Below are positions 26,422 through 43,719 of a stretch of DNA of 64,000 nt, one piece after another. The translations under genes were made by a program, and so were the position numbers. Positions within the stretch are counted from its first letter, which is position 1. The number at the start of each line of letters is the position of its first letter. The notes beneath the pieces were generated by a model, which saw only the letters and a list, made by a program, of their open reading frames with translations, did no database searches and was not told where the DNA came from. Origin of the DNA: Candidatus Nealsonbacteria bacterium (GTDB taxonomy: Bacteria > Patescibacteriota > Minisyncoccia > Minisyncoccales > MHMH01); assembly GCA_016188865.1 (NCBI GenBank), contig JACPGX010000001.1, forward strand, positions 13,197 through 77,196. The letters are read 5' to 3'.

Positions 26422-26437
26422 ACATTTTCCATTATTA

Positions 26438-26468
26438 CAAACAAAAAAGCGGGGGTCAATACCTCCGC
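26438..26468 (-). terminator. terminator, copy A of a 31-bp direct repeat
   Basis: caaacaaaaaagcgggggtcaatacctccgc identical to 27703-27733; minus strand gcggagg..cccccgc + TTTTTTGTTTG. Confidence 0.7.
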
Positions 26469-26475
26469 CTTAAGA

Positions 26476-26940
26476 TTACTTTTTATAAAGTTCTCTGGCA
26501 TCTTTTCGCAAAAAAACCTGCGAAACACCAACTCTTATTATTTCATCCCAACAGGGCTCACATACCCACCAATGACCATCTAAATACATACTGGCGCCCT
26601 TGGGGTCGCTTCCTTTATTCAGGGTGTCGCGGATTGCCATAACTTCGCAGTGCCCTTCTTGTTTACAAACCGTCTTACAAAACTCGTACCCAGTGCCAGT
26701 GGGGCAATTACGGATTACTCTTGGACAAACCTCTACTTTTTCACCAGCGTTTACGCCACGACCGATAATCTTTCCTCGCTTAACAATAACTGCGGCGGTT
26801 GGTTGCTTAATGCAACCAGAATTAGCCAGTATTTTCGTCGCTTCTTTCATAAATTTATTAGTCGGACTTACGTATAGAATCTTTCGGTTTTTAGGCAGAT
26901 ATGGCAGCAATCTCGTCCTCCATTTTTCACCTCTTAACAT
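26476..26940 (-). CDS. dCMP/cytidine deaminase family protein (ComEB-like)
   Basis: 154 aa; zinc motifs HCEVMAI and CEPCWDEI, extra Cys cluster. Confidence 0.75.
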   Translation of the reverse strand: MLRGEKWRTRLLPYLPKNRKILYVSPTNKFMKEATKILANSGCIKQPTAAVIVKRGKIIGRGVNAGEKVEVCPRVIRNCPTGTGYEFCKTVCKQEGHCEVMAIRDTLNKGSDPKGASMYLDGHWWVCEPCWDEIIRVGVSQVFLRKDARELYKK

Positions 26941-26941
26941 T

Positions 26942-27667: not shown

Positions 27668-27700
27668 ATAATAGAGCGAGAAGTGTTCTCGCTCTATTAT
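27668..27700. repeat. 15-bp-stem palindrome abutting the start codon of copy 2
   Basis: ataatagagcgagaa gtg ttctcgctctattat, ends 1 nt from ATG(27667). Confidence 0.8.
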
Positions 27701-27702
27701 CG

Positions 27703-27733
27703 CAAACAAAAAAGCGGGGGTCAATACCTCCGC
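27703..27733 (-). terminator. terminator, copy B of the 31-bp direct repeat
   Basis: Identical to 26438-26468; directly downstream of 27747-28076. Confidence 0.7.
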
Positions 27734-27746
27734 TTTAACAAGAGTC

Positions 27747-28076
27747 TTATTCCTTGAAACCAAACCTTGTTTCTAAGCCGGCTCTACGGCAAATCCAGTG
27801 GATCATCGCGGCATCCATGATAATTCCTATCGGTCCCAAGATAATACTTGGAATTCCCACAAAGACCTCATCGTATGCAGTCCAAACTCGTCCCCTTGTT
27901 TCAGTCTTATAAAATTTCGTCATGCCCCTTCCAATGAACCCCAGAACAATCCAGAGAAAAATTGCGAACATCCAAAATATGAATGCAAATGAAAATATGG
28001 GGCCAGTGAAAACTGCTAGCATCACACGATGGAAAAAATCGCCAAGCAACTCTCCGATAAGTTCAAATATCCACAT
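27747..28076 (-). CDS. small multi-pass membrane protein, unknown function
   Basis: 109 aa, hydrophobic segments; AAGGAGGT SD. Confidence 0.6.
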   Translation of the reverse strand: MWIFELIGELLGDFFHRVMLAVFTGPIFSFAFIFWMFAIFLWIVLGFIGRGMTKFYKTETRGRVWTAYDEVFVGIPSIILGPIGIIMDAAMIHWICRRAGLETRFGFKE

Positions 28077-28141
28077 TGTTGCAACCTCCTTTCTTTTTTA
28101 ATGTTCCAGATAACGAATACTAGCATACACATTAAAAAAAG

Positions 28142-29497
28142 TCAATAACCTATGCGGTATTTCGTAAAAGCTTCTTGATAAACTCCCTCGTCCAAAAAGC
28201 CATGGCCGGAAATATTAAAAAGAATTATTTTTTTCTCACCGGTTGCCTTGCACTCGAGCGCTTCTTCAATTGCGGTGGCAATAGAATATATGGACTCCAC
28301 TGCGGGAAAGCCGTGCCGCCTAGGATTATACTCTCCGATATTGGCTACTTGCGGCAGGACAACCGGCGGAGGCAAGGGCCCTTCCGTATCATAAAATAAT
28401 TTAGCGCAGCAAAAAACAAAAGATTCATCGGGAGAAACCGCTTCTATCAAGCCATGATTTCTCAAAAGGCTGATAATCGGAGCGGCTGAAGCGTAGCGCA
28501 AACCTTCAGCTAAAGAAGGAGCGAGTTTTGCTTTATGGCCCAAAGTATACATCTTCAACTTCGGAGTCAAACCGGCGTGGTCAGCGTAGTCATAGCGATA
28601 TTTTCCCTTAATCAAGCTGGGAGCGGCTTGCGTCTGGCTGGCAATAAATCTGATTTTTTTTCCACCCGCCAAAACTTCTTTCATAAAAGGCAGAGCAATA
28701 CCGCCAAAATTACTCCCGCCGCCAAGACAGGATATTACGATATCCGGCCAAAGCCTCAATTCCTCAAACTGCTGACGCGCTTCCAAGCCAATAATGGTCT
28801 GATGCAAAAGCACGTGGTTTAAAACAGAACCCAAAACGTAAACCGTACTTTCGGAGCTGGGTAGATAAGCTGTGTCCTTACGGGAAATGGCATCTTCCAA
28901 GCCTTCGGAAATGGCTATGCCTAAAGACCCTTGATGATTGGGATTATCATGCAAAAGTGTCTGGCCGCATCCTGTATTTGTGCTGGGAGAAGCATAAACC
29001 ACGGCTCCTAATTCTTCCATAAACTTTCTTCTTTCCGGCTTTCTATCGTGAGCCGCTCTCACCCAATAAACCGCCGCCTCAAGGCCAAAAATTTTTGCTG
29101 CGTAAGCCACGGCAGTTCCCCACTGTCCTGCTCCGGTTTCTGTAACTAGCCGTTTAATGCCAGCTTGTTTTGCGTAAAATGCTTGGGCTAAAGCAGTATT
29201 TAATTTATGAGAACCTGTGGGACTGTAAAATTCTGTTTTATAAAAAAGACGGGCGGGAGTTTTCAATGCTGCTTGAAGTTTTTTAGCTTCAACCAGCGGC
29301 CTTGGCCTGCCAATCATCGCATAAATTTGCTGAAGCTCTTTGGGAATTTCAATTTCCGGTTCCCTGCTCATTTCCTGCTTCAAGCATTCCGGCACTAAAA
29401 CTTTCAGCACTTCTTCGCCGCCTTTTGGCGGAGGCAATGGCTCTAAGTATTTTGCCAAATCCGGCACAATGTTATACCAACTCTGAATATTTTCCAT
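28142..29497 (-). CDS. TrpB2-type tryptophan synthase beta-like PLP enzyme
   Basis: ..FYSPTGSHKLNTALAQA..TETGAGQWGTA..; start at MENIQSWYNI with GGAGGT SD. Confidence 0.8.
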   Translation of the reverse strand: MENIQSWYNIVPDLAKYLEPLPPPKGGEEVLKVLVPECLKQEMSREPEIEIPKELQQIYAMIGRPRPLVEAKKLQAALKTPARLFYKTEFYSPTGSHKLNTALAQAFYAKQAGIKRLVTETGAGQWGTAVAYAAKIFGLEAAVYWVRAAHDRKPERRKFMEELGAVVYASPSTNTGCGQTLLHDNPNHQGSLGIAISEGLEDAISRKDTAYLPSSESTVYVLGSVLNHVLLHQTIIGLEARQQFEELRLWPDIVISCLGGGSNFGGIALPFMKEVLAGGKKIRFIASQTQAAPSLIKGKYRYDYADHAGLTPKLKMYTLGHKAKLAPSLAEGLRYASAAPIISLLRNHGLIEAVSPDESFVFCCAKLFYDTEGPLPPPVVLPQVANIGEYNPRRHGFPAVESIYSIATAIEEALECKATGEKKIILFNISGHGFLDEGVYQEAFTKYRIGY

Positions 29498-29584
29498 TAG
29501 CGTACCTCCATCTTCTATTTTCAAGGCGCTAATCCACCATACAAAATCTTCAAAAAAAATCAAGCCCCAAAATAAAACCCCGGA

Positions 29585-30748
29585 TTAACCCGAGGTTTTT
29601 TTACTTAATAGAATTTCCAGATAAGATTTTTTAGTGGTGTCTTTTTTCCTGATGCCGAGCTTTTTCAAGAGTTCGGTGATTTCAGCTTTCCCCTCGTGAT
29701 TCTTAGCGCGGAATTCCAAAAATTCTCCGTTGTTTTCTATTCTATCCATAACGAGTTCCAGATTATCTCTTTCAGAAAATTTTCGCCTTATTTTTTTCAG
29801 AGAAAGCGTTCTTTTATATCCCAACTTTTCCAGTGCGTCTTTTAAACCGGGCTCCACCTCAAACTCAATTTTGGGCTTAATCCTGAAAGAGCCACTGCAT
29901 ACAGGACCTTTGTAGGCAAGAAAATATCTGCCCCCCTCTTCCCTTATGCGCATCAACTCTCCCTTATAATTCTTTTCCCAATTAGGAGCAGAATAGTAGG
30001 TGTCCTGCTGGAGAGCGCTGGATCGCAATCGAAAGCCAATCTTTGCCAATTCGTCCAGAGGAATTTCCCGCCTCAAAAATACTTTAATCTGGATTTCCTG
30101 ACTCTGGCACGATTCAGCTTCAATTTCCGGAACATACTGATTAACGATTATTACATCGGCCCGGGATTTTGTCGGCTCAACGTGCAGCTTATACATCGGA
30201 TAAACGGTTTCTACATACTGCCTAAAAATATCCCGCTCTGTCTGGCCGGTTCTGCCGACATCCCTAAGAAGCCTGCGCAATAAACTTCCGTGAACGCTTA
30301 TATCCACAAAAATTTTACAATCAACTCTGCTGACAATGGTATCATGCAAAGCAAAGAGGCCCTCCAGAATGATTAAGTCAGCCGATTGGAATTCTTCGTA
30401 TCCTTCTCTCGTGCCTGTCTCAAAGGAATAGATTGATTTTTGGATCGAAAGGCCGCATTTTAAAAGTTCCAGGTGCCACTTCAGAAGATCAAGATCAAGA
30501 GCCCGCGGCTCATCCCAATTGTCAGAGCCGATGCTCTCCATGAAATGCCGGCCCTTGAAATAATCGTCCATGCTTAAGATAACTGACCCGGGAAAGCAAT
30601 CGTGAAGACTCTTGGCTACTCTCGTTGTTTTGCCCGAACCCGAACCTCCGGCAACCCCTATAATCAACGGTTTCGTTTTCTTTATCATTCTTTTTATTCT
30701 GCGCTGGATGACTGGCAGTCCTTTGTTTAATTCGTAAGTCTTAGACAA
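29585..30748 (-). CDS. uridine kinase/PRK-family P-loop kinase fused to C-terminal CYTH domain
   Basis: IIGVAGGSGSGKTT P-loop; C-terminal beta-rich EIQIKVFLRREI.. region; probable TTG start (30748) 5 nt after GGAGGTG inside upstream gene end. Confidence 0.7.
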   Translation of the reverse strand: MSKTYELNKGLPVIQRRIKRMIKKTKPLIIGVAGGSGSGKTTRVAKSLHDCFPGSVILSMDDYFKGRHFMESIGSDNWDEPRALDLDLLKWHLELLKCGLSIQKSIYSFETGTREGYEEFQSADLIILEGLFALHDTIVSRVDCKIFVDISVHGSLLRRLLRDVGRTGQTERDIFRQYVETVYPMYKLHVEPTKSRADVIIVNQYVPEIEAESCQSQEIQIKVFLRREIPLDELAKIGFRLRSSALQQDTYYSAPNWEKNYKGELMRIREEGGRYFLAYKGPVCSGSFRIKPKIEFEVEPGLKDALEKLGYKRTLSLKKIRRKFSERDNLELVMDRIENNGEFLEFRAKNHEGKAEITELLKKLGIRKKDTTKKSYLEILLSKKTSG

Positions 30749-31220
30749 TTTTACACCTCCATTCTTCCGGAATAGCGTCGAGTTTCGCCAAATTATGATT
30801 TTCAAATCTTGGATCACCCGTCACTTCTTCGGTCATAATGCCCGTAGGCATTTCAAAAGCATCATCTTTTGATTTTTTCTCGAACTCCAGCAAAACTAAG
30901 CCGCCTAATTGAGCAAGAAAAACATCGAGCTCCAAAATGCCAATGAGATGTCTTGTCTTTCTGATTTTGTTAAACTTTCTGACTCTTAAAAGCGTATTGG
31001 CAAAAGTGCGATGAATTTCCTGCTCATACTCCCGATTAACGCCCGGCTTCTGCTTTATTTTTATTGTCAAATAGTAAGTATCGAAATTCTCAACCCTCAC
31101 TCTAATCGGCGGGTCAATGGAAATATACCATTGAGTGATTTCTTTGCTAGGATATTCAAGATAGCTTCTCGGAAGCGCCTTCACCAAAAATTTTTTTTCA
31201 TTCTCAATCTTTAATTTCAC
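30741..31220 (-). CDS. CYTH-domain (triphosphate tunnel metalloenzyme) protein
   Basis: KLKIENEKKFLV (ExExK) N-terminal motif; probable GTG start at 31220 just after Nudix stop. Confidence 0.7.
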   Translation of the reverse strand: MKLKIENEKKFLVKALPRSYLEYPSKEITQWYISIDPPIRVRVENFDTYYLTIKIKQKPGVNREYEQEIHRTFANTLLRVRKFNKIRKTRHLIGILELDVFLAQLGGLVLLEFEKKSKDDAFEMPTGIMTEEVTGDPRFENHNLAKLDAIPEEWRCKIV

Positions 31221-31221
31221 G

Positions 31222-31626
31222 CTATCCTTCCCTTTTCGAATCATTGATTATCTTGCGATGATCAAATCCTATATTCTCGGGAAGTTGATCCAAAGGGAAA
31301 AATTGAAATTCCAGCGACTCATCGTTAAGACAAATCTCCCCCTTTGTTCTCTCTAAAAGAAAAACCATGGAAACTACGTGGTACCTTGGGTCTCTCTTGG
31401 GATCAGAATACACTCCAATTAATTTTTTAATCCTCACTGAAATTCCCAATTCTTCTTTCATTTCCCTTTTAACCGCTTCTTCAACAGTTTCTCCGTATTC
31501 AACATGACCGCCGGGAATCACCCAATACCCGATAAAGGGATAATAACTCCGTTTCTCCAATAAAATCTTCCCTTCTTCCAAAATCACTCCATCCACGGCT
31601 AAAATCGGACTTCTCGGCTTTTCCAT
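31222..31626 (-). CDS. NUDIX hydrolase
   Basis: Nudix box GGHVEYGETVEEAVKREMKEELG; AAGGAGGAAGG SD. Confidence 0.85.
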   Translation of the reverse strand: MEKPRSPILAVDGVILEEGKILLEKRSYYPFIGYWVIPGGHVEYGETVEEAVKREMKEELGISVRIKKLIGVYSDPKRDPRYHVVSMVFLLERTKGEICLNDESLEFQFFPLDQLPENIGFDHRKIINDSKREG

Positions 31627-31766
31627 GAATCCTTCCTCCTTTTATTGCGAATTTTGTCAATGAACGAAGTTATATTATCAAAAATTTAAAAATTTGACAA
31701 GAAGAAAAACGTATGCTAATCTTCCAGAGTTCGGTTCATTAAAAATAATCGTAAAGGGGGAAAAGT

Positions 31767-32360
31767 ATGAGCCACATCGCGGTTTACAAGACAACGCTGG
31801 GAGAGGTTAATACAGATATTCTGAAAAAAACCCTGGAAATCCTTGCGCTGGAGGAAACCGGCATAGAAATACGCGATTATATAGAAGATTACTACGGGAA
31901 AAAACATAGTTCATGGGAAGGAAATAAGATCATCGGAGCTATATTCAGCCGCCAATTGCAAAAAGGAGTTGGCGTCAGCGTAGATAAGCAGGGGCATCTT
32001 GTTTTTATTTCGCATGAACTAGGACCGGCCTTTGAAAAAATAAAAGCCAGAATTGAGCATATCTATAAAGTGGTTGCTCTGGCAATCGCCCTCCAAAATA
32101 TGGGGTACGAAATCCAGGCAGATGAAAAAATGACGACCCTCGAGGCAACTCTTAATAAAAATAAAATCAGCATTGAAATGAAGGGCAAAGGAGATGTTGC
32201 CACCGACCTTGAAGGATTTGCCGGTAAAACCTGCTTTGAAGAAGCGCAAAAATTAGCAGAAATGCTGAAAGAATTGGGGGTGAACGTTGATGCCAAAGAT
32301 TTGCAGCCAAAACCAGAAAGCCAAATCGAACCGCCCGAAAGGCAAAAACAAAGCTCCTAG
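31767..32360 (+). CDS. DUF1257(Ycf35)-like N-terminal domain fused to DUF2997-like C-terminal domain
   Basis: 197 aa; starts MSHIAVYKTTL; C-terminal ISIEMKGKGDVATDLEGFAGKTCFEEAQKLAEMLKELG; AAGGGGGA SD. Family assignment from memory of family signatures. Confidence 0.6.
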   Translation: MSHIAVYKTTLGEVNTDILKKTLEILALEETGIEIRDYIEDYYGKKHSSWEGNKIIGAIFSRQLQKGVGVSVDKQGHLVFISHELGPAFEKIKARIEHIYKVVALAIALQNMGYEIQADEKMTTLEATLNKNKISIEMKGKGDVATDLEGFAGKTCFEEAQKLAEMLKELGVNVDAKDLQPKPESQIEPPERQKQSS

Positions 32361-32361
32361 T

Positions 32362-32502
32362 ATGATGGTAATTTCTGTCTTGTCAAATGGCGACATTATG
32401 GTGCAAGATTACTCGCATCAAGATGATCGCCAAAAACTCGTTAAAATGCTTCAAAAAATGGGAATAAAAACAGAAGCTATTATTGACAGTCTTTGCGGTT
32501 AG
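32362..32502 (+). CDS. 46-aa mini-protein (DUF2997-shaped, lacks the Cys)
   Basis: MMVISVLSNGDIMVQDYSHQDDRQKLVKMLQKMGIKTEAIIDSLCG; ATG 1 nt after upstream stop; ORF-track 32287 start overlaps gene 1. Confidence 0.5.
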   Translation: MMVISVLSNGDIMVQDYSHQDDRQKLVKMLQKMGIKTEAIIDSLCG

Positions 32503-32512
32503 GGGAGGTAAG

Positions 32513-34330
32513 ATGGACGAAAAAAATAATTTGCCCGAGTGGTTTAATGATCTTGTCACTCAATATCAGGCTGGCATCAGCCGGGAATTTATACTTTTTG
32601 GGAATATCGCTGACTTGATTCGTAATCCTGACGACGAACCGGAAAAACAGTATATTTCTTTTCGAGAATTTTGGGAGAAAATTTTTGAAGAACGTGAAAT
32701 GGTTATTCTTTACAGCATGGCCTGGGGACTCCGTTTCCCTAACAAAGATATGGAAGAACGTTTTAGAATAGCTTCCGGATTCGACCAGCCAGACTCAAGC
32801 TCAACAAGTCCTCTGGCAAAAGTCGGCGTCCTGCAGAAAAGACGGCTTCCTCAAGATCCAGAAACCTGCCTTCTGCTTATTGAAAGAGCGCTTAGAAATA
32901 TACCGAAAATAGCGGTGATGATCTACTTTGCTCACCACGTTGTCCCGGCTGGAGGTCCCGGCGGGACAACGCAGACACCCTCGGAAAGAGTAAACATTGA
33001 AAGACTTGCCCAGTGGGCTTCGAGCGTAGGAATCAAAGAAAGCAAGGGCATTGTCCTATTATTTACTGATAAAATTGCGAACCTTGCCTCGGAACTGCGA
33101 GAAACTAACAGTGGCGTTAAACCGATTATGGTGCTCAAGCCTTCAAGGGCCGAAAGAAAAGAATTTTTGCAATCCATTACCTGCAAGCCACAGCCGAAGA
33201 AAAAGAAACAGCCGCCAGTTGATAGCGAAGGAAAATTTTTAGTACCGGAAGATTTCAACCTGGACGAATTCACCCACGCTACTCAGGGAATGGGCTTCCA
33301 GCAGATTCTTGATATTTTCCTTCGCAGCAAAGAAAGAAAGGGGGCAGTAAATTTAGATTATGTAAAAGAAGAAAAAAAGAAAATACTGAACAGCGAATTC
33401 GGCGAAGTTATGGAGGTTATGGAACCTGCAAGCGGATTCGACGATGTCGGAGGATTGGAGTATATAAAGAAATATTTTAACGTTATTCTTGACGCCATAA
33501 AGAAAGGTGAAAAAAGACTCGTCCCGATGGGAATCACCTTGATGGGTCCTCCGGGAACCGGAAAGACAAAGATTCTTGAGGCACTGGCCTTCGAAGCAGG
33601 CTTCAACTTTGTCAAAGCTAAAAATCTCCGAAACATGTGGGTCGGCGGCTCGGAAGAGAGGATGCAGACTTTCAAATACGGTCTTTATTCACTGGCGCCG
33701 GTTGTGGTTAACAATGATGAGGCCGATCTCGCCGAAGCCGACCGCAATTCTCCGAAAGGAGATTCCGGTGTATCGGAAAGGCACATGAGAGAATGGATGG
33801 ATATGCTGTCCGATCCGAAAATCCGCGGCCAAATTATTGTAATCAACTGCACCAATAGACCCGACAGGCTTGATCCGGCTCTCAAAAGAAGCGGGAGAAG
33901 CGATGACAGAGTCCTCCTGCCCATGCCTTCAGAAGAAGAGAGGAAAGTGATTTTTCCGGTAATGTTCAAGAGATACAAAATACCAACGAGTATTTCTGAC
34001 TTTACAGAATTTGCCGAACTGACAAACGGCTTATCCGGAGCAGATATCGAAAAAATAACATTGAACGCCTTCAAGCTGGCGTTTAAGCAATGCAGGGAAA
34101 AGGTCGACGCAGACGATTTGAAAAAGGCAATTGCCGATTTCATCCCAAGCGCCAGCCAGAAAGAAATCGATCTGATGACCCTTATGGGTATACTGGAATC
34201 TTCATCGCGTGAATTACTGCCGCCTCATATCAAAGAGATTGTCGAGGCGATTAAAAAACGAAACATGGTACCGAACCTTGACGGAATTCTTGCTGAAATC
34301 AAGGCCAGAAAAATTGTGGATATAGATTAA
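32513..34330 (+). CDS. AAA+ ATPase, Ycf46-like (long N-domain + one classical AAA module)
   Basis: Start at MDEKNN after GGGGAGG SD; Walker A GPPGTGKT, Walker B VVVNNDEAD, SRH TNRPDRLDPALKRSGRSD. Confidence 0.8.
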   Translation: MDEKNNLPEWFNDLVTQYQAGISREFILFGNIADLIRNPDDEPEKQYISFREFWEKIFEEREMVILYSMAWGLRFPNKDMEERFRIASGFDQPDSSSTSPLAKVGVLQKRRLPQDPETCLLLIERALRNIPKIAVMIYFAHHVVPAGGPGGTTQTPSERVNIERLAQWASSVGIKESKGIVLLFTDKIANLASELRETNSGVKPIMVLKPSRAERKEFLQSITCKPQPKKKKQPPVDSEGKFLVPEDFNLDEFTHATQGMGFQQILDIFLRSKERKGAVNLDYVKEEKKKILNSEFGEVMEVMEPASGFDDVGGLEYIKKYFNVILDAIKKGEKRLVPMGITLMGPPGTGKTKILEALAFEAGFNFVKAKNLRNMWVGGSEERMQTFKYGLYSLAPVVVNNDEADLAEADRNSPKGDSGVSERHMREWMDMLSDPKIRGQIIVINCTNRPDRLDPALKRSGRSDDRVLLPMPSEEERKVIFPVMFKRYKIPTSISDFTEFAELTNGLSGADIEKITLNAFKLAFKQCREKVDADDLKKAIADFIPSASQKEIDLMTLMGILESSSRELLPPHIKEIVEAIKKRNMVPNLDGILAEIKARKIVDID

Positions 34331-34347
34331 AAAAGGAGGTAAAAAAA

Positions 34348-35286: not shown

Positions 35287-35298
35287 AGGAGGTAGATA

Positions 35299-35763
35299 AT
35301 GATTGTAAAACTCCCTGTGCCAATTTCATCTATTATAGACCAGGCAGTTGATATTTTCGTTTCCAGTCACTCTGGAGTAGAAACTGATAAAAGATACCAA
35401 GGCGCCGACCTATGGATGATACGCAAACACGAAACAGGAAATAGCGATGAGCCGTCTATTGTTTCGCGGCGAATAACAATCGCGGCATATCCAGAAAACG
35501 AAGATGAATTAGTTTTCATACCCGACATTATTGTAACCAAGGCAAACAGCGGTCGCTATGTTCCTACGGCCGAGAAACGAAGGGAAAATATGAGGCGTCT
35601 TTCTATTTTTGATATTGAGGGCCGCTTGTTTCGTAAACGAAACGAAAATCAGAGAAGGAAAGAACTCGAAAAGATAAGAAATGAGATGGTGAAAATATTA
35701 AACTCTGCTTGGGTTGCCACAAACAATCTTTCAACGGCGGATGCGACAGAATTAGTTCCGTAA
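35299..35763 (+). CDS. hypothetical protein, last gene of operon
   Basis: 154 aa, AGGAGG SD, no recognisable motif. Confidence 0.6.
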   Translation: MIVKLPVPISSIIDQAVDIFVSSHSGVETDKRYQGADLWMIRKHETGNSDEPSIVSRRITIAAYPENEDELVFIPDIIVTKANSGRYVPTAEKRRENMRRLSIFDIEGRLFRKRNENQRRKELEKIRNEMVKILNSAWVATNNLSTADATELVP

Positions 35764-35785
35764 TAAGTTTAGATAGTTGTAAATC

Positions 35786-35826
35786 AAAACCCGATGTTTA
35801 CATCGTCAACATCGGGTTTTTTGTTT
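35786..35826 (+). terminator. intrinsic terminator of the 31767-35763 operon
   Basis: aaaacccgatgtt/aacatcgggtttt 13-bp stem + T-run. Confidence 0.8.
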
Positions 35827-35853
35827 AAAACTAACGATGTCGTTCTTCGTTAG
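35827..35853. repeat. hairpin repeat i of Y1-transposase-like gene 3 (3' flank)
   Basis: aaaactaacgatgtcgttcttcgttag; ctaacga/tcgttag stem; abuts stop codon. Confidence 0.8.
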
Positions 35854-36600
35854 TTATTCAATGGCGACTTGTTCCGAATCGGCCAATTCTCTTTTTACTT
35901 GCAGCCAATCATTGACTAATCTTCGGGCTTCTTTAACGCCGCCCATTTCATTAATCAGCCATTCCCTGGCAGTGACGGACGGAAAATTTTTATTGCCAAG
36001 GCAATCGAGATAGCTTGACCAACGATATTCTTCTTCAAGAAATTTAATAATTTTATTTAAATCTTTAATTTTGATTCCCTCTTCTTTCCACTTCGGACAA
36101 ATAATTGCTACTGGATTGGTATGAATATAGACAAAAACAATTTTTAATTGGTTGTCGTTAGTAATATAAACTATTTTATATCTTCCCTGAAAAACATGCC
36201 CCGCTCTTTTATATTTCTGATTATAGTAATGTCCGTATCCAGTCCCAATTTTTCTCATGAGTTTAATTATACCGCCATCTTTGACTTGTCGCACCAACAG
36301 ATGAACATGATTTAACATCAAACAAAATGCCAATATCTCTACTATAATTTCTCTTTTTTCATCTCTTATATTTACTAAACTAACGATGTCGTTCTTCGTT
36401 AATTTTCGTTTTAGAGAAAAATGGCGGGCAACACGGAATTTTGAAGAAACTGGCTTTAAGTCGTTGAATACAAATAAATTATGGATCATTTGCAAATAAT
36501 CTTGCTTATCACGAAAAAGCTTTAGGCCATCTACTGCCCGAATAACAATGTGGTATATTTCCTTAGTAACTAATGGTGGTCTTCTGCCTTTATTCTTCAT
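35854..36600 (-). CDS. HUH/Y1 transposase-like protein, copy 3
   Basis: 248 aa; HUH LMLNHVHLLV, Tyr motif VYIHTNPV. Confidence 0.8.
   Translation of the reverse strand: MKNKGRRPPLVTKEIYHIVIRAVDGLKLFRDKQDYLQMIHNLFVFNDLKPVSSKFRVARHFSLKRKLTKNDIVSLVNIRDEKREIIVEILAFCLMLNHVHLLVRQVKDGGIIKLMRKIGTGYGHYYNQKYKRAGHVFQGRYKIVYITNDNQLKIVFVYIHTNPVAIICPKWKEEGIKIKDLNKIIKFLEEEYRWSSYLDCLGNKNFPSVTAREWLINEMGGVKEARRLVNDWLQVKRELADSEQVAIE
36376..36403. repeat. hairpin repeat ii, inside the ORF of copy 3
   Basis: taaactaacgatgtcgttcttcgttaat; encodes ..LTKNDIVSLV.. in the pre-HUH linker. Confidence 0.8.
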
Positions 36601-36628
36601 AAAACTAACGATGTCGTTCTTCGTTAAT
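36601..36628. repeat. hairpin repeat iii, abutting the start codon of copy 3
   Basis: aaaactaacgatgtcgttcttcgttaat begins 1 nt after ATG(36600). Confidence 0.8.
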
Positions 36629-36631
36629 TAT

Positions 36632-36660
36632 ACTATAGCGAAATAAAAATACCCTGCCAA
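36632..36660 (-). promoter_or_regulatory. promoter of copy 3 (TTGGCA-17-TATAGT)
   Basis: Minus strand cTTGGCAgggtatttttatttcgcTATAGTataatt; transcript would start at the hairpin. Confidence 0.5.
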
Positions 36661-36664
36661 GAGT

Positions 36665-36700
36665 GTCTCCAAGAACGTCTCCAAGAACGTCTCCAAGAAC
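36665..36700. repeat. 3 x 12-bp perfect tandem repeat gtctccaagaac
   Basis: Units 36665-76, 36677-88, 36689-700; directly upstream of the copy-3 promoter. Confidence 0.85.
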
Positions 36701-36709
36701 GAAAGGCTT

Positions 36710-36750
36710 GCCCTCCCACTCATGCATAGGTGGGAGGGCTTGTTTTTTTT
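36710..36750 (+). terminator. orphan plus-strand intrinsic terminator
   Basis: gccctcccac/gtgggagggc 10-bp stem + TTGTTTTTTTT; no plus-strand gene directly upstream. Confidence 0.65.
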
Positions 36751-36799
36751 ATAAAATATGGTAGCGTATAACATCGAACCTTAACAAAGAGGTAAAAAA

Positions 36800-39229
36800 A
36801 TGGTTAAAAGAAGTATGGCGAAACTAAAAGGATTAACCATTGCATTGTGCCAAATGAAGGTAGTCCCGGGGCGTCCCGACCTTAACGCCGCTTACATTAT
36901 TGAAGAAATTAAAAAAGCAAAAAACCGCGGCGTGGACATTATCGTTTTCCCGGAATTGTGCACAACCGGCTACATTGTCGGCGACATCTTTGAAGACGAT
37001 TTCTTTATAGAAGACGTACTTTCTTGGAATAAAAACATTATTGAAGCCACCAGAAACGGCGTTACGGTTGTTTTCGGCACCATAACTGTTTCCCAAAATC
37101 AAAGGGGCGAAGATGGCAGACAGCGTAAACACAATACCGTCGTTACCGCGCAAAACGGCAAGGTGCTGCTGGCTGTCCCTAAGACTCTTCAGCCGAATTA
37201 CCGTTTTTTTAACGATGATAAACATTTTTATTCTTCGCGTAAAATAGCGCAAGAACAAAATATCTCTTTACAAAAAATCCTCAAACCGGTAGAAGTTGAA
37301 ACTAAAATTGGAAAGGTTAAGATCGGCGCTATTGTCTGCGAAGATATGTGGCACAAAGACTACCCTTTCAACCCGACCAAAATCCTGACAGATAACGGAG
37401 CTGAACTTATTATCAATGTTTCTGCTTCACCTTGGACGTGGCAAAAAAACCGCAAACGCCACCAAATTGTCAAAGAATTACTGCAAGAGTGCAAAATTCC
37501 CTTCGTTTATGTAAACAACACGGGTGTTCAAAATACAGGGAAAAACATTATTGTTTTTGACGGAAGCTCAACTGTATACGATGAAAAAGGCGAGATTGTT
37601 TTTGATGTCGAGCCCTATGAAGGTGGCTCTTACGATTTTAAATTCGCCAAAGACGTAAAACCTTTGAAAACAAAGCCGCAAGATGATACTGCAGAACTTT
37701 ATAACGCCATGCTTTGCGCGACTAAAACAATGACGCCTCCGAATAAAAAAGTGCTTGTCGGGTTAAGCGGCGGGATTGATTCTGCTGTTGTCTGCGCTCT
37801 TTTGGTGGACGCCCTAGGCAAAGACCGAGTAATGGCAATAAACATGCCCATGCCCTACAACAGTCAGAAAACTCGCGATTTCGCAGCGCTTATTGCTAAA
37901 AATCTGGGAATTCAATACGAAGTCGTTCCTATTGGTGAAATCGTTGAGGCGGTTTGCAAATCAAGGCAAATTGAACCGGGAACTCTTGCCTATGAAAATA
38001 TCCAAGCGCGGGCAAGGAGAGAAATCTTATCGACTACGGCCGATGGTTTCTTTGTCTGCTGTTCCAATAAGACAGAAATTGCTTTCGGTTATGGCACTCT
38101 TTACGGAGATATTGCCGGATATTTTGCGCCATTGGGCGACTTAGTAAAAAGAGAAGTTAGGCAAATTGCCGCTTATCAAAATCAAACAAGATTCAAACAA
38201 AAAATTATCCCCGAAGAATGCATTAACCAAACGCCAACCGCCGAACTTAAAGAAAACCAAAAAGATCCCTTTGATTACGGCGATTTAACTAAAAGGGGCT
38301 ATCACGACGAGATGATCAGGGCTTTTACCGAGTTTCGCAAAAATCCCGAGTGGTTTATCGAATCGTATCTTAAGAGCAAGTTGGAAGAAGAACTTTTGCT
38401 TGAGCCCGGAACCTTAGTCCGTCTTTTCCCGACCCCTAAAGACTTTGTGAACGACCTGCAACATTGGTGGAAAACGTTTCACGGATCGTATTTTAAGAGA
38501 GTTCAATGCCCGCCCATACCAATTTTCAGCAAACGGGCTTTCGGCAGAGACCTTGAGGAATCTTTAATGCAGCCTCATCTCACCCAAAGATACTTATATT
38601 TAGAAAAATATTTGCTTTCTCAAGGAAAATCTCCAAAGCAAAGAGTTGCGATTTTTGGCGGAAGTTTTAATCCTCCGGCCATGAATCATAAGTTCATCGT
38701 TGCCGAACTTTCCCGAGTGTTTGAAAAAGTGGTGGTCGTGCCTTGCGGCATCAGAACAGATAAACCATCTACCACGGTGGCTTCTCCCCAGCAAAGAAAA
38801 GTAATGGCAGAAATGACCTTCTCGGGTATGCCCAATGTCCAGCTTGATTTTTATGACCTCGAGAAAAATGTTTTTACTCCTACTTATCTTCTGCAGGAAC
38901 GCTACGCCAAACTTTTTCCTGATTCGGAAATATGGATTGCCGTCGGCGAAGATTTAGTGGCAGGCGGAAAGGAAGGCAATTCGGAAATTCAAAAATCCTG
39001 GAAAAAAGGAAAAGAAATCTGGAAAAATTTGAAATTCGTTGTTGTCAGCCAGCCAAATAAAAGACCAAACCCTCAAGACCTGCCGCCAACAAACGAATTG
39101 ATAGCAATAGAAATTATTTTGGGAAGAAGCACCGAGTTAAGAGAGAAAATCTCCAAAGGGCAATCGATTGATGGCCTTGTCATACCGGAAGTAATGCGGT
39201 ATATTGAAGAACAGAAACTTTACAAATAG
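36800..39229 (+). CDS. nadE: glutamine-dependent NAD+ synthetase (CN-hydrolase + NAD synthase) fused to C-terminal NMN/NaMN adenylyltransferase
   Basis: 809 aa; ..FPELCTTGY.., PP-loop GLSGGIDSAV, C-terminal IFGGSFNPPAMNHKFIV (eukaryote-like NMNAT GSFNP..MH). Confidence 0.8.
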   Translation: MVKRSMAKLKGLTIALCQMKVVPGRPDLNAAYIIEEIKKAKNRGVDIIVFPELCTTGYIVGDIFEDDFFIEDVLSWNKNIIEATRNGVTVVFGTITVSQNQRGEDGRQRKHNTVVTAQNGKVLLAVPKTLQPNYRFFNDDKHFYSSRKIAQEQNISLQKILKPVEVETKIGKVKIGAIVCEDMWHKDYPFNPTKILTDNGAELIINVSASPWTWQKNRKRHQIVKELLQECKIPFVYVNNTGVQNTGKNIIVFDGSSTVYDEKGEIVFDVEPYEGGSYDFKFAKDVKPLKTKPQDDTAELYNAMLCATKTMTPPNKKVLVGLSGGIDSAVVCALLVDALGKDRVMAINMPMPYNSQKTRDFAALIAKNLGIQYEVVPIGEIVEAVCKSRQIEPGTLAYENIQARARREILSTTADGFFVCCSNKTEIAFGYGTLYGDIAGYFAPLGDLVKREVRQIAAYQNQTRFKQKIIPEECINQTPTAELKENQKDPFDYGDLTKRGYHDEMIRAFTEFRKNPEWFIESYLKSKLEEELLLEPGTLVRLFPTPKDFVNDLQHWWKTFHGSYFKRVQCPPIPIFSKRAFGRDLEESLMQPHLTQRYLYLEKYLLSQGKSPKQRVAIFGGSFNPPAMNHKFIVAELSRVFEKVVVVPCGIRTDKPSTTVASPQQRKVMAEMTFSGMPNVQLDFYDLEKNVFTPTYLLQERYAKLFPDSEIWIAVGEDLVAGGKEGNSEIQKSWKKGKEIWKNLKFVVVSQPNKRPNPQDLPPTNELIAIEIILGRSTELREKISKGQSIDGLVIPEVMRYIEEQKLYK

Positions 39230-39249
39230 AAAAAGGAAAGGAGGAAAAA

Positions 39250-40155
39250 ATGGGATCTGGTAAATGGTCGGATAATGATTACTATCTTAAAGAAAGTGCG
39301 CGTAGAGTAAGCGGTGAAAGCGCTTTTAAGTACACGGACAACGAAATGAGCAGGGTTAGCCGGGATAAATGGAAGGTTAACCAAAAAATGGACCCGAAAG
39401 GCGTAACGCGCGAAAGCAGGGACAGCGCCACCCATCCGGAATCACTGGCTATCGGAGTCATTTTTGACCACACGGGCTCTATGGGAGAAACCCCGAGAGT
39501 CCTGCAAAGAGCATTAGCCCGCATGATGGGAACTCTCTTAGAAAAAGGCAAAATCGCCAATCCCCAAGTTCTCTTCGGCGCAAATGGCGACGCTACGACT
39601 GATCAGGCGCCATTGCAAATAGGCCAGTTTGAATCTGATATCACTATGGAAGATGATTTGGGCCGGCTCTTGCTGGAAGGAAACGGCGGACACTACGGGC
39701 AAGAATCATACGAACTTGCACTGTATTTCATGGCCCGGCACACTTCAATGGATTGCTTAGAGAAAAGAAAGAAAAAGGGTTACCTCTTCCTTATCGGCGA
39801 TGAACTTCCATATAATATTAAAAAGAGTGAGGTCAAAAGCATTATTGGCGACGAGCTTCCTCAAAATATCCCAGTTGAACAAATTGTCGCTGAGGCCAAA
39901 GAAAAGTATCACATCTTTTTCCTTATTCCTACTGGAGCTCATGGCGGAAGAAATCCCGCGGTAATGCAGCGCTGGGTAGAATTGCTTGGGCAAGAATTCG
40001 TAGTCCAGCTGGAAAATCCCGAAGAGATCGCTGAAAGAATTTCCCTTATAGTGAAAACGAACGAAGAAAAGCTTGCGCCGGCAAAAGGCAAAACAAAAAT
40101 ACCAACTACTGCCCCCAAGGAACCTGCCCGAAAGAAAAAACCCGGAAGGATATAA
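39250..40155 (+). CDS. vWA-domain protein, paralogue of 34348-35286, same KKKPGRI tail
   Basis: 301 aa; VIFDHTGSMGE, ..DQAPLQI.., LEGNGGHYGQESYE; AAAGGAGG SD. Confidence 0.7.
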   Translation: MGSGKWSDNDYYLKESARRVSGESAFKYTDNEMSRVSRDKWKVNQKMDPKGVTRESRDSATHPESLAIGVIFDHTGSMGETPRVLQRALARMMGTLLEKGKIANPQVLFGANGDATTDQAPLQIGQFESDITMEDDLGRLLLEGNGGHYGQESYELALYFMARHTSMDCLEKRKKKGYLFLIGDELPYNIKKSEVKSIIGDELPQNIPVEQIVAEAKEKYHIFFLIPTGAHGGRNPAVMQRWVELLGQEFVVQLENPEEIAERISLIVKTNEEKLAPAKGKTKIPTTAPKEPARKKKPGRI

Positions 40156-40161
40156 AAATAA

Positions 40162-40197
40162 AAAGTCCTGCACTAAGGTGCGGGACTTTACTTTTTT
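40162..40197 (+). terminator. intrinsic terminator after nadE-vWA
   Basis: aaagtcctgcac/gtgcgggacttt stem + CTTTTTT. Confidence 0.7.
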
Positions 40198-40250
40198 AAA
40201 AAATATGATAAAGTGCAATGTTCGTACATTGAAAAAAGGAGGTGGTAAAA

Positions 40251-41219
40251 ATGCTCATAGCTACCTTACCGACGCTTACGGGAACAGAAACGCAGAATCT
40301 TTCAGAAGAAATTTTAAGACATTCTTTAGTAGATGGCGCAAGATATAATACCGGGGGAGCAAGCCCCTACACGCCCAAGCAAATCCTCGAAACACTCAAA
40401 CCTATTGCGGATCGTTACAAAAAAATTCTTTATGTTGATCTTGAAGGAAGACAGGCTCGAGTTGCCGCCTGGACTCCTTTTTCTAGAGGAGCAGTAACCC
40501 TCAACCGCGATTTTAACATTGAGCTTCCAGGCAAGATTCATTTTCGCCGAGGCGGCTGGTGCGACATCGTCAACGCCTTACCGGAAGAACGAAAAATTTT
40601 CTTTAAATCGCACAGAACTAAAGAGGAGTATTATTTAGGCGAATCGCAAAGCGTTAATGTTGTTGCTAAAAATTTTGAAGTGAAAGGCTATCTTTACGGC
40701 GACGATTTTGAATATATCAAAGCAGCTGTTGAGCTAGATATATCTCACTTCATGCTGTCTTTTACCGAGAGTCTGTACGACGTAGTTGATTTTTACGCCG
40801 CGTACCATGAGCACGGCACCATCAACGATTTGCCAAATCCGCAGCTCGTATTGAAAATAGAGTCTCAAAAAGGAATTGAATTCGTTAAAAAATCTTCACG
40901 CCATTTTCTGCGGGAATTCAGGCTTATGGCCGCCAGAGACGATTTATTCCTTAGTTTTGCTGATAAGCGCCCCGAATTTCTCTCAGCCCTTAAGCTTATC
41001 ATCAAGAAAAATCCCAAGGCGATTCTTGCTTCCAAAATTCTATCCGGCCTGCTGGATTATCCCTACGAAGTCTCGGTTGGCGATATGACGGATATAACCC
41101 TGATGAACCATCTCGGTTACCGCCACTTTATGCTTCAAGATGAGCTGGCTGACAATTTTGAGCTGACAATGCAAAACTGGCAAAAAATAATCGTACCTCT
41201 TTTAAGGGAGAAATTATGA
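40251..41219 (+). CDS. pyruvate-kinase-barrel-like protein lacking B and C domains
   Basis: MLIATLPT.., ARYNTGGAS, LVLKIESQKGIE, LMAARDDLFLSF, ..SVGDMTDITL.. parallel PK motifs; ATG after AAGGAGGTG SD. Confidence 0.55.
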   Translation: MLIATLPTLTGTETQNLSEEILRHSLVDGARYNTGGASPYTPKQILETLKPIADRYKKILYVDLEGRQARVAAWTPFSRGAVTLNRDFNIELPGKIHFRRGGWCDIVNALPEERKIFFKSHRTKEEYYLGESQSVNVVAKNFEVKGYLYGDDFEYIKAAVELDISHFMLSFTESLYDVVDFYAAYHEHGTINDLPNPQLVLKIESQKGIEFVKKSSRHFLREFRLMAARDDLFLSFADKRPEFLSALKLIIKKNPKAILASKILSGLLDYPYEVSVGDMTDITLMNHLGYRHFMLQDELADNFELTMQNWQKIIVPLLREKL

Positions 41220-42439
41220 CGGGAGAAGCGATTCTTGTCGGCGGATTGGGTTTCGGAGACGAAGGCAAGGGAAGCATAGTAGATTATCTTGTTCGCACGC
41301 AAGGAGCAAAACTTGTCGTACGCTACAACGGCGGAGCGCAAGCTGGCCATAATGTCGTTACTCCTGAGGGGTTGCATCACACTTTTTCCCAGTTCGGATC
41401 AGGCACTTTCGTGCCGGGCGTAAAAACACATCTTTCTCGATTTATGATCCTAAATCCGCTTGGCATGGTAAGGGAAGAAGAGCATCTCCGTAGTTTGGGG
41501 ATCAAAGACGTTTTTCAAAGAACGACGATTGATGAGCTGGCTCTTGTTACCACGCCGTTTCAAATAGCGGTTAACCGGCTGCTGGAAACTTGGCGGGGCG
41601 ATAAAAAACACGGCAGCTGCGGCATAGGCATCGGCCAAACTATTGAAGATTACGAAAAATATGGAGATAAAGTATTGTTTGCCAAAGATTTGAAAAATCC
41701 CGCAATTATGTCAAAAAAACTGGAGTTTATTCAAAAACAATGCCTCCAAGCAGTTCGCAGTATAACCTCAAATCTTTCTAACACCGAAACAGTAAAAACA
41801 GAGCTGGAATGGCTGGAATGTAAAAATGCTGTAGATTATTTAGTAAAAGAATTTTCTCAGTTCAGCGCCTGCGCAAGAATCGTTGGTGAAAAATATTTAA
41901 CTAAACTGCTTGAGGATAGTTCGCCTGTAATTTTTGAAGGCGCCCAAGGAGCTCTGCTTGATAGAAACTGCGGATTTAAGCCGCATATTACGAAAACCGA
42001 TACTACCCTTGCTAATGCCTATGTACTTCTCAGGGAAGCCGGCTATAAGGGAAAAATAACTAAAATTGGCGTATTACGCGCTTATGCCACTCGCCACGGC
42101 GCGGGCCCCCTTCCCACAGAAGATGAAAAACTGACCAAGATGCTCAATGACGATCATAATGTCTACAATCAATGGCAAGATAACTTCAGAGTCGGCTGGC
42201 TCGATATTCCATTAACTAAATATGCGATTATGATTAATGACGGAGTGGATTTTATAGCCCTAACAAATCTTGATCGTCTTTCAATCCTTGGGACCATAAA
42301 AGTGCGCATTAATTCCGGATTTATAGAATTTTCCGCTTGGCAAGAATTAGTCGATTTCTTACAAAACAAAAACGGACTGAATTGCCCGATTAAAATTCTA
42401 TCATTCGGCCCAACCTGGAAAGAAAAAAAAATAAACTAA
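41216..42439 (+). CDS. adenylosuccinate synthetase family protein (diverged, archaeal-short-type-like)
   Basis: 407 aa; GFGDEGKGSIVDYL, RYNGGAQAGHNVV, GSCGIGIGQT; ATGA overlap with upstream gene. Confidence 0.7.
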   Translation: MTGEAILVGGLGFGDEGKGSIVDYLVRTQGAKLVVRYNGGAQAGHNVVTPEGLHHTFSQFGSGTFVPGVKTHLSRFMILNPLGMVREEEHLRSLGIKDVFQRTTIDELALVTTPFQIAVNRLLETWRGDKKHGSCGIGIGQTIEDYEKYGDKVLFAKDLKNPAIMSKKLEFIQKQCLQAVRSITSNLSNTETVKTELEWLECKNAVDYLVKEFSQFSACARIVGEKYLTKLLEDSSPVIFEGAQGALLDRNCGFKPHITKTDTTLANAYVLLREAGYKGKITKIGVLRAYATRHGAGPLPTEDEKLTKMLNDDHNVYNQWQDNFRVGWLDIPLTKYAIMINDGVDFIALTNLDRLSILGTIKVRINSGFIEFSAWQELVDFLQNKNGLNCPIKILSFGPTWKEKKIN

Positions 42440-42476
42440 AAACCGCTCGGTCTGCGAGGCACAGAGCGGTTTTTTA
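42439..42476. terminator. bidirectional terminator between convergent genes
   Basis: aaaaccgctc..gagcggtttt stem flanked by A- and T-runs. Confidence 0.7.
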
Positions 42477-43712: not shown

Positions 43713-43719
43713 ATTTATT

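Follow-up and report, generated by a model that had tools for sequence, protein, structure and literature searches.

How does a block of genes led by strong ribosome-binding signals persist in a genome whose 16S ribosomal RNA (rRNA) offers no sequence for those signals to pair with? The question is raised by a ~15-kb segment (the island, 27747-42439) of the window, the latter being the whole stretch of DNA that was analysed, 64,000 nt of Candidatus Nealsonbacteria (JACPGX010000001.1; GCA_016188865.1). The reading favoured here, at a probability of roughly 0.55, is that the segment forms a true, contiguous cluster of accessory genes of the candidate phyla radiation (CPR)/Parcubacteria, located in a variable slot between ftsZ and HI0933-ychF and probably of old lateral origin. 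As an accessory island in a variable slot, the segment is of an already known kind. Two of its features call for explanation: Shine-Dalgarno (SD) leaders that persist without an anti-SD, and an uncharacterised enzyme set shared with actinobacteria and large phages. The NadE-NMNAT protein of the island (genes listed in Table 1) is 100% identical to a protein of a Candidatus Nealsonbacteria metagenome-assembled genome (MAG) at NCBI, with homologs mostly in CPR, and the closest FtsZ loci also belong to Nealsonbacteria MAGs.

Start codons were refined first, by choosing in-frame starts with a purine-rich motif just 5' of them, and the 13 non-transposase genes of the island were then compared with the 42 window genes outside it. 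A GGAGG-type SD, typically of the form AAAGGAGGT, lies 5-10 nt before the start in all 13. Expressed as the predicted duplex energy with the canonical anti-SD sequence, SD strength averages -10.9 kcal/mol inside the island versus -2.4 kcal/mol outside (Mann-Whitney p = 1.4e-6), and a cut-off of -6 kcal/mol or lower is reached by 13/13 and 8/42 genes, respectively (Fisher p = 1.4e-7). The Y1 transposase-like gene within the island, 35854..36600(-), has no SD motif. Thus, the first-pass annotation, in which every island gene except the transposase-like one was SD-led and four flanking housekeeping genes (ftsZ, galU, ychF and the HI0933 flavoprotein gene) were not, is upheld. An SD is not simply an operon-internal requirement, since among tightly spaced genes (<=60 nt from a same-strand upstream gene) it is found in 3/26 of the host but 5/6 of the island. 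Comparably strong SDs outside the island precede three genes only, 3818..4447(-), 4489..5889(-) and 18901..19197(-), which have an above-average GC content (0.43-0.46); none of the three gave a family match. At the position of 18901..19197, the relative L010 has an unrelated, SD-less open reading frame (ORF) of 103 aa.

Two sequences break up the 16S rRNA gene of the window near its 3' end: an insertion that encodes a LAGLIDADG endonuclease (ORF at 1317..1754), and a group I intron (709-1151) in which there is a 99-aa ORF. Positions 1395-1489 of the Rfam small-subunit model align with window positions 1220-1140, and the last exon, 3' of the intron, reads AACAAGGCACGGGTAGCGGAAGCTGTCCGTGGATCATATAATTTT (its end is also written GGAAGCTGTCCGTGGATCATATAATTTT). 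Helix 45 and its GGAA loop are intact, and the E. coli sequence GGAUCACCUCCUUA is replaced by GGAUCAUAUAAUUU. CCTCC is likewise absent between the last exon of this 16S gene and the downstream tRNA-Ile, which is followed by a gene for a KH-domain-like protein and not by 23S. The possibility that the altered tail, GGAUCAUAUAAUUUU, has founded a new SD:anti-SD pair was rejected, as tail-complementary hexamers are not enriched 5' of host genes, the sole exception being TAAAAT, a -10-like box. Many host genes have a TAnAAT (TATAAT/TAAAAT-type) box ending 4-10 nt before the start (for example, at 7720, 18834, 43712, 44787, 49571 and 60767). This placement of the box suggests that leaderless or very short-leader transcripts are the main initiation mode of host genes.

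The "SD-dependent" label first given to the island is therefore not safe at face value: the GGAGG motif is there before 13/13 genes, but the host 16S in the window lacks a CCUCC anti-SD. Loss of the anti-SD is known from about half of Parcubacteria (Tsurumaki et al. 2022, PMC9297842), and organisms without an anti-SD are generally without SD motifs too (Amin et al. 2018, PMC6107228). Many genes of the present host agree with this pattern; what is truly odd is a block of 13 strong SDs within such a genome. In having mostly SD-less genes with A/T-rich or -10-like sequence 5' of them, and few strong SDs, the window resembles other anti-SD-less Parcubacteria and the SD-independent Bacteroidota (where rpsU, for example, is among the SD-led minority). 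In Bacteroidota, however, the anti-SD is present but sequestered, so that rare SDs can pair, whereas the 16S of the window has no CCUCC at all. The papers that could be searched give no account of a conserved SD-led cluster in an anti-SD-less host.

The island also differs from its surroundings in composition, and the computed GC, codon and tetranucleotide usage steps at the borders that had been proposed for it. Its GC content is 42.6% versus 39.3% outside (39.2% in the left flank and 39.5% in the right), and, with the rRNA region set aside, the GC-richest 14.8-kb interval starts at 27.6-28.0 kb. Per gene, GC is 0.430 inside and 0.395 outside (p = 0.0014), and GC at third codon positions is 0.430 and 0.380 (p = 2e-4). 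The tetranucleotide profiles of the left and right host flanks correlate at 0.98, those of host and island at 0.91; local values are 0.81-0.89 inside and 0.93-0.97 outside, with steps at ~26.5-29 kb and 41.5-44 kb. The codon-usage log-likelihood ratio is positive for 10/13 island genes and 6/42 host genes, the island preferring NNC over NNT and avoiding TTA. The six hand counts of G+C per 60-nt line from which the GC-richer island was first proposed are all exact (29, 29 and 31 inside versus 13, 16 and 21 outside) but unrepresentative, the mean per line being 25.5 versus 23.6. Thus, the island is GC-richer, but by a modest offset that had been overstated, and "GC-richer with different RBS" (ribosome-binding site) is insufficient grounds for calling a recent transfer or a chimera.

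Three other CPR contigs, L017 (GCA_040961635.1), L018 (ENA ZHEN22 scaffold_7105) and L025 (ENA ANAN16 scaffold_12172), carry homologs of the cluster genes with order and orientation preserved (49-77% identity). The genes common to the copies are those for the Udk-CYTH, CYTH-like, 197-aa, AAA+, vWA1, NadE-NMNAT, vWA2, pyruvate-kinase (PK)-like and PurA-like proteins; for the 197-aa gene, tblastn gave no match in L025, where a 224-aa ORF occupies the corresponding place. The genes for TrpB2, the small membrane protein, the 154-aa ORF and the Y1 protein are specific to the window in this comparison, and vWA1 and NadE-NMNAT are adjacent in all three contigs. A metagenome scan with the AAA+ protein returned one locus, L015, which has only the AAA+ (94%) and vWA1 (85%) genes, in a different context. 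Indeed, L017, L018, L025 and L015 place the cluster in unrelated genomic contexts.

The GC content of the cluster exceeds that of its SD-less flanks by 2-6 points in L017, L018 and L025, and it tracks that of each host. Duplex energies are about -6 to -13 kcal/mol for the cluster genes of these contigs and ~0 for the SD-less flanking genes, which have a -10 box beside the ATG (L27, L9 and S41 protease genes in L018, SIMPL and PsbP in L017, Germane in L025). GGAGG cores are kept before nearly every gene in five diverged cluster copies, and the spacer sequence around them is variable. Because they are conserved across the copies, the SDs appear to be under selection rather than simple neutral relics, although, from its sequence, the window 16S gene cannot pair with them. 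In L015 (1-2030), from a close relative, a terminator and a promoter are inserted between the AAA+ gene and vWA1, and the vWA1 SD is retained.

The history of the locus can be followed in the relatives L010, L011 (Nealsonbacteria RIFCSPLOWO2_01_FULL_43_32) and L016. In L011, ychF (76% identical) lies 26 nt upstream of ftsZ, which represents an empty site. In L016 the order is ftsZ-DUF4325-MerR-NadE/NMNAT-C39 peptidase-PaaX-HI0933-ychF, where NadE-NMNAT is 77% identical to that of the window, has the same orientation and follows a nearly identical leader. In L010 the CYTH-like gene (58% identical) is directly upstream of ftsZ, and two small SD-led ORFs and the same terminator as in the window also precede ftsZ. 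The FtsZ proteins of relatives with cluster orthologues at this locus are only 65-71% identical. Since the 77% identity of NadE-NMNAT between the window and L016 falls within the 56-88% range of eight flanking genes, it looks as old as its neighbours. Judging from these alignments, the ftsZ-ychF interval is a long-standing variable slot, and the cluster or parts of it were present before these lineages split. Small SD-led ORFs upstream of an SD-less ftsZ, with no similarity to window proteins, are present at L009 (972-2339), L012 (1272-1502) and L010 (400-960); accessory genes with SDs thus seem to accumulate next to ftsZ in general.

The cluster thus most likely reached this lineage by lateral transfer out of a different CPR lineage, at a time when the L010 and L016 relatives had not yet split off, and later would have been partly lost or remodelled in some of these relatives. 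A lateral origin that is both old and within CPR is plausible. The horizontal acquisition first proposed agrees with the empty site in L011 and with the unrelated contexts in L017, L018 and L025, but it is unlikely to be recent, given the same-slot pieces in the diverged L010 and L016. Like genomic islands and flexible-genome slots, the segment has a compositional offset at its borders, is present or absent between ftsZ and ychF, and carries accessory metabolic cargo. Unlike typical genomic islands, it has no integrase, tRNA target or flanking repeats, the order of its cargo is conserved across genomes, its acquisition appears old, and it differs from its host in the translation-initiation signal.

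Several observations weigh against this reading. The compositional shift is small (~3 GC points); some flanking genes of the other carriers are also SD-led, e.g. CTP synthase (L018) and Trx/AhpC (L025); and in L015 the SD of the AAA+ gene has been lost by a short deletion. The borders are marked by no integrase (Pfam) and no island-wide direct repeats, and no tRNA gene lies at 26-43 kb. The ribosomes of other cluster-carrying genomes may still have an anti-SD, and the functional model given below is inferred from domain content and gene neighbourhood. Finally, the same-locus orthologues in L010 and L016, with their flank-like divergence, also fit vertical inheritance combined with losses.

This last point leads to the alternative that survives best, which is unlikely but has to be taken seriously: a cluster native to Parcubacteria and inherited vertically, with no lateral transfer, in which the SDs and the composition reflect a leadered, polycistronic, regulated expression regime and the empty or partial sites reflect losses. 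Besides the orthologous pieces at the ftsZ-proximal locus, such a history would fit the mostly CPR membership of the PK-like and NadE-NMNAT families, the conservation of the NadE leader in four genomes and the way in which cluster GC follows each host. It fits poorly with the unrelated contexts in L017, L018, L025 and L015, with the adjacency of ychF and ftsZ in L011, and with tetranucleotide and codon usage unlike that of both flanks. In addition, vWA2 shares 50-55% identity with proteins of actinobacteria and myxobacteria, which is more than would be expected had it descended vertically across phyla.

What the SDs do in such a host may be read in three ways. They may be functional, read by a second rRNA copy, a protein or an RNA rather than by the window 16S; relatives may keep an anti-SD for special genes, as in Bacteroidota, this genome having lost its anti-SD recently so that its SDs are relics; or the cluster may circulate among CPR lineages that mostly use SDs. 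The more ambitious reading, that an SD-led accessory cluster is selected in anti-SD-less Parcubacteria, that its GGAGG motifs are read other than by the 16S tail, and that it encodes an uncharacterised NAD-linked pathway, is doubtful at present. Under that reading, the motif may be recognised by a second specialised rRNA copy or by a protein or RNA factor, or it may have a regulatory use. If it is true, the genome would run two modes of translation, one for a leaderless core and one for SD-led accessory genes, and would show whether accessory or mobile genes can hold a separate initiation code in one cell. If the SDs are truly maintained without an SD:anti-SD helix, they offer a natural test case for start-site choice. 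A gene caller that trains a single RBS model on CPR genomes will set wrong starts for one of these two classes of genes.

An improbable alternative is recent acquisition from an SD-using, GC-richer donor, which would make the GGAGG motifs undecayed, non-functional relics. The distinct GC, codon and tetranucleotide usage of the island, the missing anti-SD of the host 16S, the higher GC of the other SD-led window genes (which have no family matches) and the SD lost from the AAA+ gene of L015 could all be read in this way. Yet the SD cores are kept before nearly every gene in copies whose proteins have diverged by 23-51% and whose intergenic surroundings differ, relatives with FtsZ only 65-71% identical have orthologues at the same locus, and the GC offset is only ~3 points.

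Under the favoured reading of an old accessory cluster, the cargo is proposed to be organised as two divergent, leadered, SD-led operons that would start in the 31.63-31.77 kb intergenic region. The minus-strand operon would consist of the Nudix, CYTH-like and Udk-CYTH genes, followed by the lineage-specific TrpB2 and small membrane protein genes, and the plus-strand operon of the genes for the 197-aa protein, Cdc48-like AAA+, vWA1, NadE-NMNAT, vWA2, the PK-barrel protein and the PurA-like ligase. The domains, together with recurring neighbours linked to nicotinamide adenine dinucleotide (NAD), are the grounds on which an NAD-centred nucleotide-handling pathway is proposed. In this scheme, NadE-NMNAT would make NAD; the Udk-family kinase, CYTH domains and Nudix hydrolase would process nucleosides or nucleotides; the PurA-like ligase would act on a substrate other than inosine monophosphate (IMP) and aspartate, with vWA2 as a partner; the PK barrel could regenerate a nucleoside triphosphate for this ligase; and AAA+ and vWA1 would be a remodeller/adaptor pair analogous to NorQ/NorD or CbbQ/CbbO.

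In PurA, N38, T129 and R143 contact the IMP 5'-phosphate, and TTGRRRR is the aspartate loop. The PurA-like protein of the island (Pfam E = 8e-64) keeps the P-loop GDEGKG, the catalytic His and Gln224, as do PurA and phage PurZ of the same superfamily. Relative to E. coli PurA (1ade), however, N38 is replaced by Q and TT by SC, R143 has no counterpart, and the aspartate loop reads WQDNFR. The protein scores below the PurA equivalog cutoffs (178.6 bits versus 402 for NF002223; 149.8 versus 395.6 for TIGR00184), and the NCBIfam PurZ exception model gives 38.2 bits against a cutoff of 300, over the N-terminal 60 residues only. It thus retains the residues of GTP-dependent phosphoryl transfer without those for IMP phosphate and aspartate, and probably ligates a different substrate. 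Also unlike PurA and PurZ, it is always encoded beside a vWA protein.

The partner, vWA2, has 4005 homologs, of which those in Streptomyces, Frankia, Nocardiopsis and Labilithrix (Actinobacteria, Myxococcota) are 50-55% identical, and in Streptomyces, Labilithrix and phages the gene for the homolog adjoins a PurA-like gene. An NrtR-type Nudix regulator gene comes first in Streptomyces inhibens, followed by genes for a J-domain/kinase-like protein, a vWA protein and a PurA-like protein; the last three recur as a triad in Labilithrix and mycobacteriophage Tonenili. The Nudix protein of the island shares 44% identity, across 77 aa, with the Nudix domain of the Streptomyces NrtR-type protein beside the vWA/PurA-like pair. 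In the triad loci (L023, 7978-12365; L024, 8829-12399; L020, 4670-8137; also Bixzunavirus) a J-domain with an HPD motif is fused to the kinase-like protein. In Vibrio phage phiKT1024 a NADAR gene lies close to the vWA and PurA-like pair, and a 485-kb phage has a vWA gene with a PK-like gene. NAD-linked neighbours thus recur elsewhere as NrtR (Streptomyces), isochorismatase (L017) and NADAR (phiKT1024). Literature searches returned nothing on the vWA/PurA-like/kinase module or on its link to NrtR. Because the vWA and PurA-like core occurs at 37-55% identity in Streptomyces, Labilithrix, Bixzunavirus and Vibrio phages, any function found for it would apply widely; the cluster points to an unstudied set of enzymes around NAD synthesis.

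As in NorQ/NorD, CbbQ/CbbO, CoxD/CoxE, and the Mg-/Co-chelatase pairs BchI/BchD and CobS/CobT, an AAA+ gene is followed here by a gene for a vWA protein of the metal-ion-dependent adhesion site (MIDAS) type within a metabolic operon, and NorD vWA domains are among the best structural matches of vWA2. Unlike the ATPase of the MoxR-type pairs (AAA_3/AAA_5), the one in the island belongs to the classical Cdc48/FtsH/PAN clade; its best matches are PF00004, Cdc48, PAN, FtsH, VAT and p97 D2. Also unlike NorQ/NorD-type pairs, the cluster has two vWA paralogues (30% identity between the 312-aa vWA1 and the 301-aa vWA2), the second of which is tied to the PurA-like enzyme rather than to the ATPase. The AlphaFold2 model of vWA2 (pLDDT 86) matches vWA and NorD domains in Foldseek with a probability of 1.0, and by this model the protein has a true vWA fold.

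NAD metabolism is a phage-host battleground, and several island proteins have phage homologs (phrog_2971 for vWA, phrog_1211 for PurA-like, phrog_6660 for CYTH-like and phrog_8638 for AAA+), the vWA and PurA-like pair being present in Bixzunavirus mycobacteriophages, Vibrio phages and a 485-kb phage. A prophage remnant, or an anti-phage defence or counter-defence island, is nevertheless very unlikely: no capsid, terminase, integrase or other phage hallmark is present at 26-43 kb, synteny is stable in several cellular contigs, and the phage matches to AAA+ are limited to the generic ATPase domain. PADLOC found nothing specific to a known anti-phage defence system, only generic AAA+ similarity (IetA, TRIP13), and no match for nine other proteins.

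The integrity of the contig was checked against Logan per-run assemblies. Contigs from five other runs are 100% identical to the window at 27704-45399 (L001), 31266-42656 (L002) and 36359-44015 (L003); L001 and L003 cross the right border, so that the junction to HI0933/ychF is reproduced. In a sixth run (SRR12113418), contig L007 joins 28750->27693 directly to 26473->26320, in the ftsZ 5' region. The first-pass annotation had left room for a chimeric assembly, but the chance that DNA of two organisms was joined is negligible, as the composition steps and the stop of Logan contigs at 27704 are outweighed by the reproduced right junction, by the link from the left end of the island to ftsZ in L007 and by relatives with the same neighbours, the stop itself coinciding with a 46-bp direct repeat that an assembler with k=31 cannot resolve. 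The other end of L001, the longest independent contig, is at 45399, where 225 nt separate the ASCH gene from the FKBP gene, and may mark another repeat or a strain-variable point.

The features of the island and its surroundings are collected in Table 1. The gene content first proposed holds for TrpB2, Udk-CYTH, Nudix, AAA+, NadE-NMNAT, the PurA-family protein and the vWA2 fold; the 159-aa "CYTH" (E = 0.011) and the PK barrel are weak assignments. The NadE-NMNAT chain combines CN_hydrolase (Pfam E = 1.7e-17), NAD_synthase (1.1e-44) and cytidylyltransferase-like (1.3e-8) domains, an architecture shared with >100 homologs. The PK-like family has 280 members, nearly all from CPR, many of which have a precomputed PF00224 match. 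The 197-aa protein gave no family match, and neither it nor vWA2 nor the PK-like protein had an informative match among PDB sequences. An Rfam scan of the window at gathering thresholds found the 16S, three tRNAs and the group I intron only, all outside the island, and no riboswitch or known RNA within it. Upstream of NadE-NMNAT are a 12-nt tandem repeat (CCAAGAACGTCT, ~3.7 copies, 36657-36701) and a strong hairpin with a T-run (36710-36749). The ~60 nt that precede the NadE ATG are conserved in four genomes, and within them lie an extended -10-like TGnTAnnnT and the leader GAACCTTAACAAAGAGGT (aligned regions: window 36657-36799; L016, 5200-5470; L017, 6890-7015; L018, 9880-10010).

Table 1. 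Features of the island and related elements of the window (strand as - or +).
Feature	Position	Strand	Remarks
Host 16S rRNA gene, two insertions	655..3455	-	last exon ends GGATCATATAATTTT, no CCUCC anti-SD
Y1 gene a (third Y1, outside the island)	9978..10700		element region 9939-10759; 17 kb from the island
Terminator-like hairpin + T-run, repeat copy 1	26428..26473	-	just upstream of ftsZ; conserved left anchor of the slot; same terminator 5' of ftsZ in L010
1.27-kb indel module, separate from the cluster	26476..27692	-	dCMP/cytidine deaminase 26476..26940 (Pfam) + Y1 gene b 26942..27667/27763
Repeat copy 2, 91% identical	27693..27738	-	serves as terminator 3' of the small membrane gene; break point of Logan contigs
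Small membrane protein, 109 aa	27747..28076	-	SD-led (AAAGGAGGT); not in the conserved cluster elsewhere
TrpB2-type pyridoxal-phosphate enzyme, 451 aa	28142..29497	-	SD-led; NCBIfam PRK12391, 500 bits (cutoff 366); not in the conserved cluster elsewhere
Uridine-kinase-family P-loop kinase + CYTH (Udk-CYTH), 387 aa	29585..30748	-	SD-led; Pfam PRK + CYTH; 58-60% identical in L017, L018, L025
CYTH-like, 159 aa	30741..31220	-	Pfam CYTH weak, E = 0.011; phrog_6660; 58% identical in L010, 55% in L017
Nudix hydrolase, 134 aa	31222..31626	-	SD-led; first gene of the putative minus-strand operon; Pfam
197-aa protein	31767..32360	+	first gene of the putative plus-strand operon; conserved member; 54-63% identical in L017, L018
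Classical AAA+ ATPase, 605 aa	32513..34330	+	Cdc48/VAT/p97 D2-like module; unique N-terminal ~300 aa; 52-77% identical in L017, L018, L025
vWA-like protein 1 (vWA1), 312 aa	34348..35286	+	paired with AAA+, 17 nt after it; phrog_2971; 66-74% identical in L017, L018, L025
154-aa ORF	35299..35763	+	SD-led; absent from other cluster copies
Y1 element c	35826..36641	-	Y1 gene 35854..36600; own hairpin x3 at 35829, 36378, 36603; between vWA1 and NadE-NMNAT
Region upstream of NadE	36657..36799	+	tandem repeat, hairpin, -10-like box, conserved leader ending AAAGAGGT
NadE-NMNAT fusion, 809 aa	36800..39229	+	glutaminase (CN_hydrolase) + NAD synthase + cytidylyltransferase-like adenylyltransferase (Pfam)
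vWA protein 2 (vWA2), 301 aa	39250..40155	+	invariant DxTGS MIDAS-type motif
Pyruvate-kinase-barrel-only protein, 322 aa	40251..41219	+	weak PF00224 match
Divergent PurA-superfamily ligase, 407 aa	41216..42439	+	right end of the cluster; convergent with HI0933, 34 nt between stop codons
SD-led island starts, minus strand	28076, 29497, 30748, 31220, 31626	-	
SD-led island starts, plus strand	31767, 32513, 34348, 35299, 36800, 39250, 40251, 41216	+	

The three Y1 proteins of the window are 41-42% identical to one another. They resemble IS200/IS605 TnpA (Y1) and RAYT proteins in their Pfam Y1_Tnp matches (E 1e-10 to 4e-7), in keeping the HUH-type NHxHLL and the YIHTNP motifs, and in the hairpins that flank their genes. 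Each of the elements a and c has a private hairpin in three copies, one upstream of the ORF, one inside it and one downstream, at conserved spacings of 549 and about 225-241 nt; the internal copy falls in the variable linker that separates the first strand from the HUH motif. For Y1-b, only the upstream and internal copies were found, the hairpins of the indel module being at 27456-27484 and 27670-27698. No further copies of the Y1 hairpins and no dispersed repetitive extragenic palindromic (REP) copies are present in the window. Thus, the Y1 elements differ from known IS200/IS605/RAYT elements in their mutual divergence, private hairpins, additional hairpin in the linker and lack of dispersed REPs. 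The genes themselves are low-GC and SD-less, like those of the host.

The Y1 elements were considered as a vehicle for the island and rejected, because their hairpins bracket only each ~0.8-kb unit and no Y1 gene accompanies the cluster in L017, L018 or L025. The association of the island with Y1 genes drawn in the first-pass annotation is therefore incidental, one of the three being 17 kb away; they are self-contained IS200/RAYT-like units and not island borders. Y1-c interrupts a vWA1-NadE junction that is intact in other genomes, and, together with the 154-aa ORF, this unit would have been inserted later between vWA1 and NadE-NMNAT.

The Y1 gene and duplicated terminator described at the left edge are both real, the latter as the 46-bp direct repeat 26428-26473/27693-27738, which brackets the deaminase and Y1 module only. 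The L007 variant is without the exact stretch between the two repeat copies, and there the island abuts ftsZ. The two forms amount to a 1265-bp indel polymorphism in the population, in which the deaminase and Y1 module is either present or absent.

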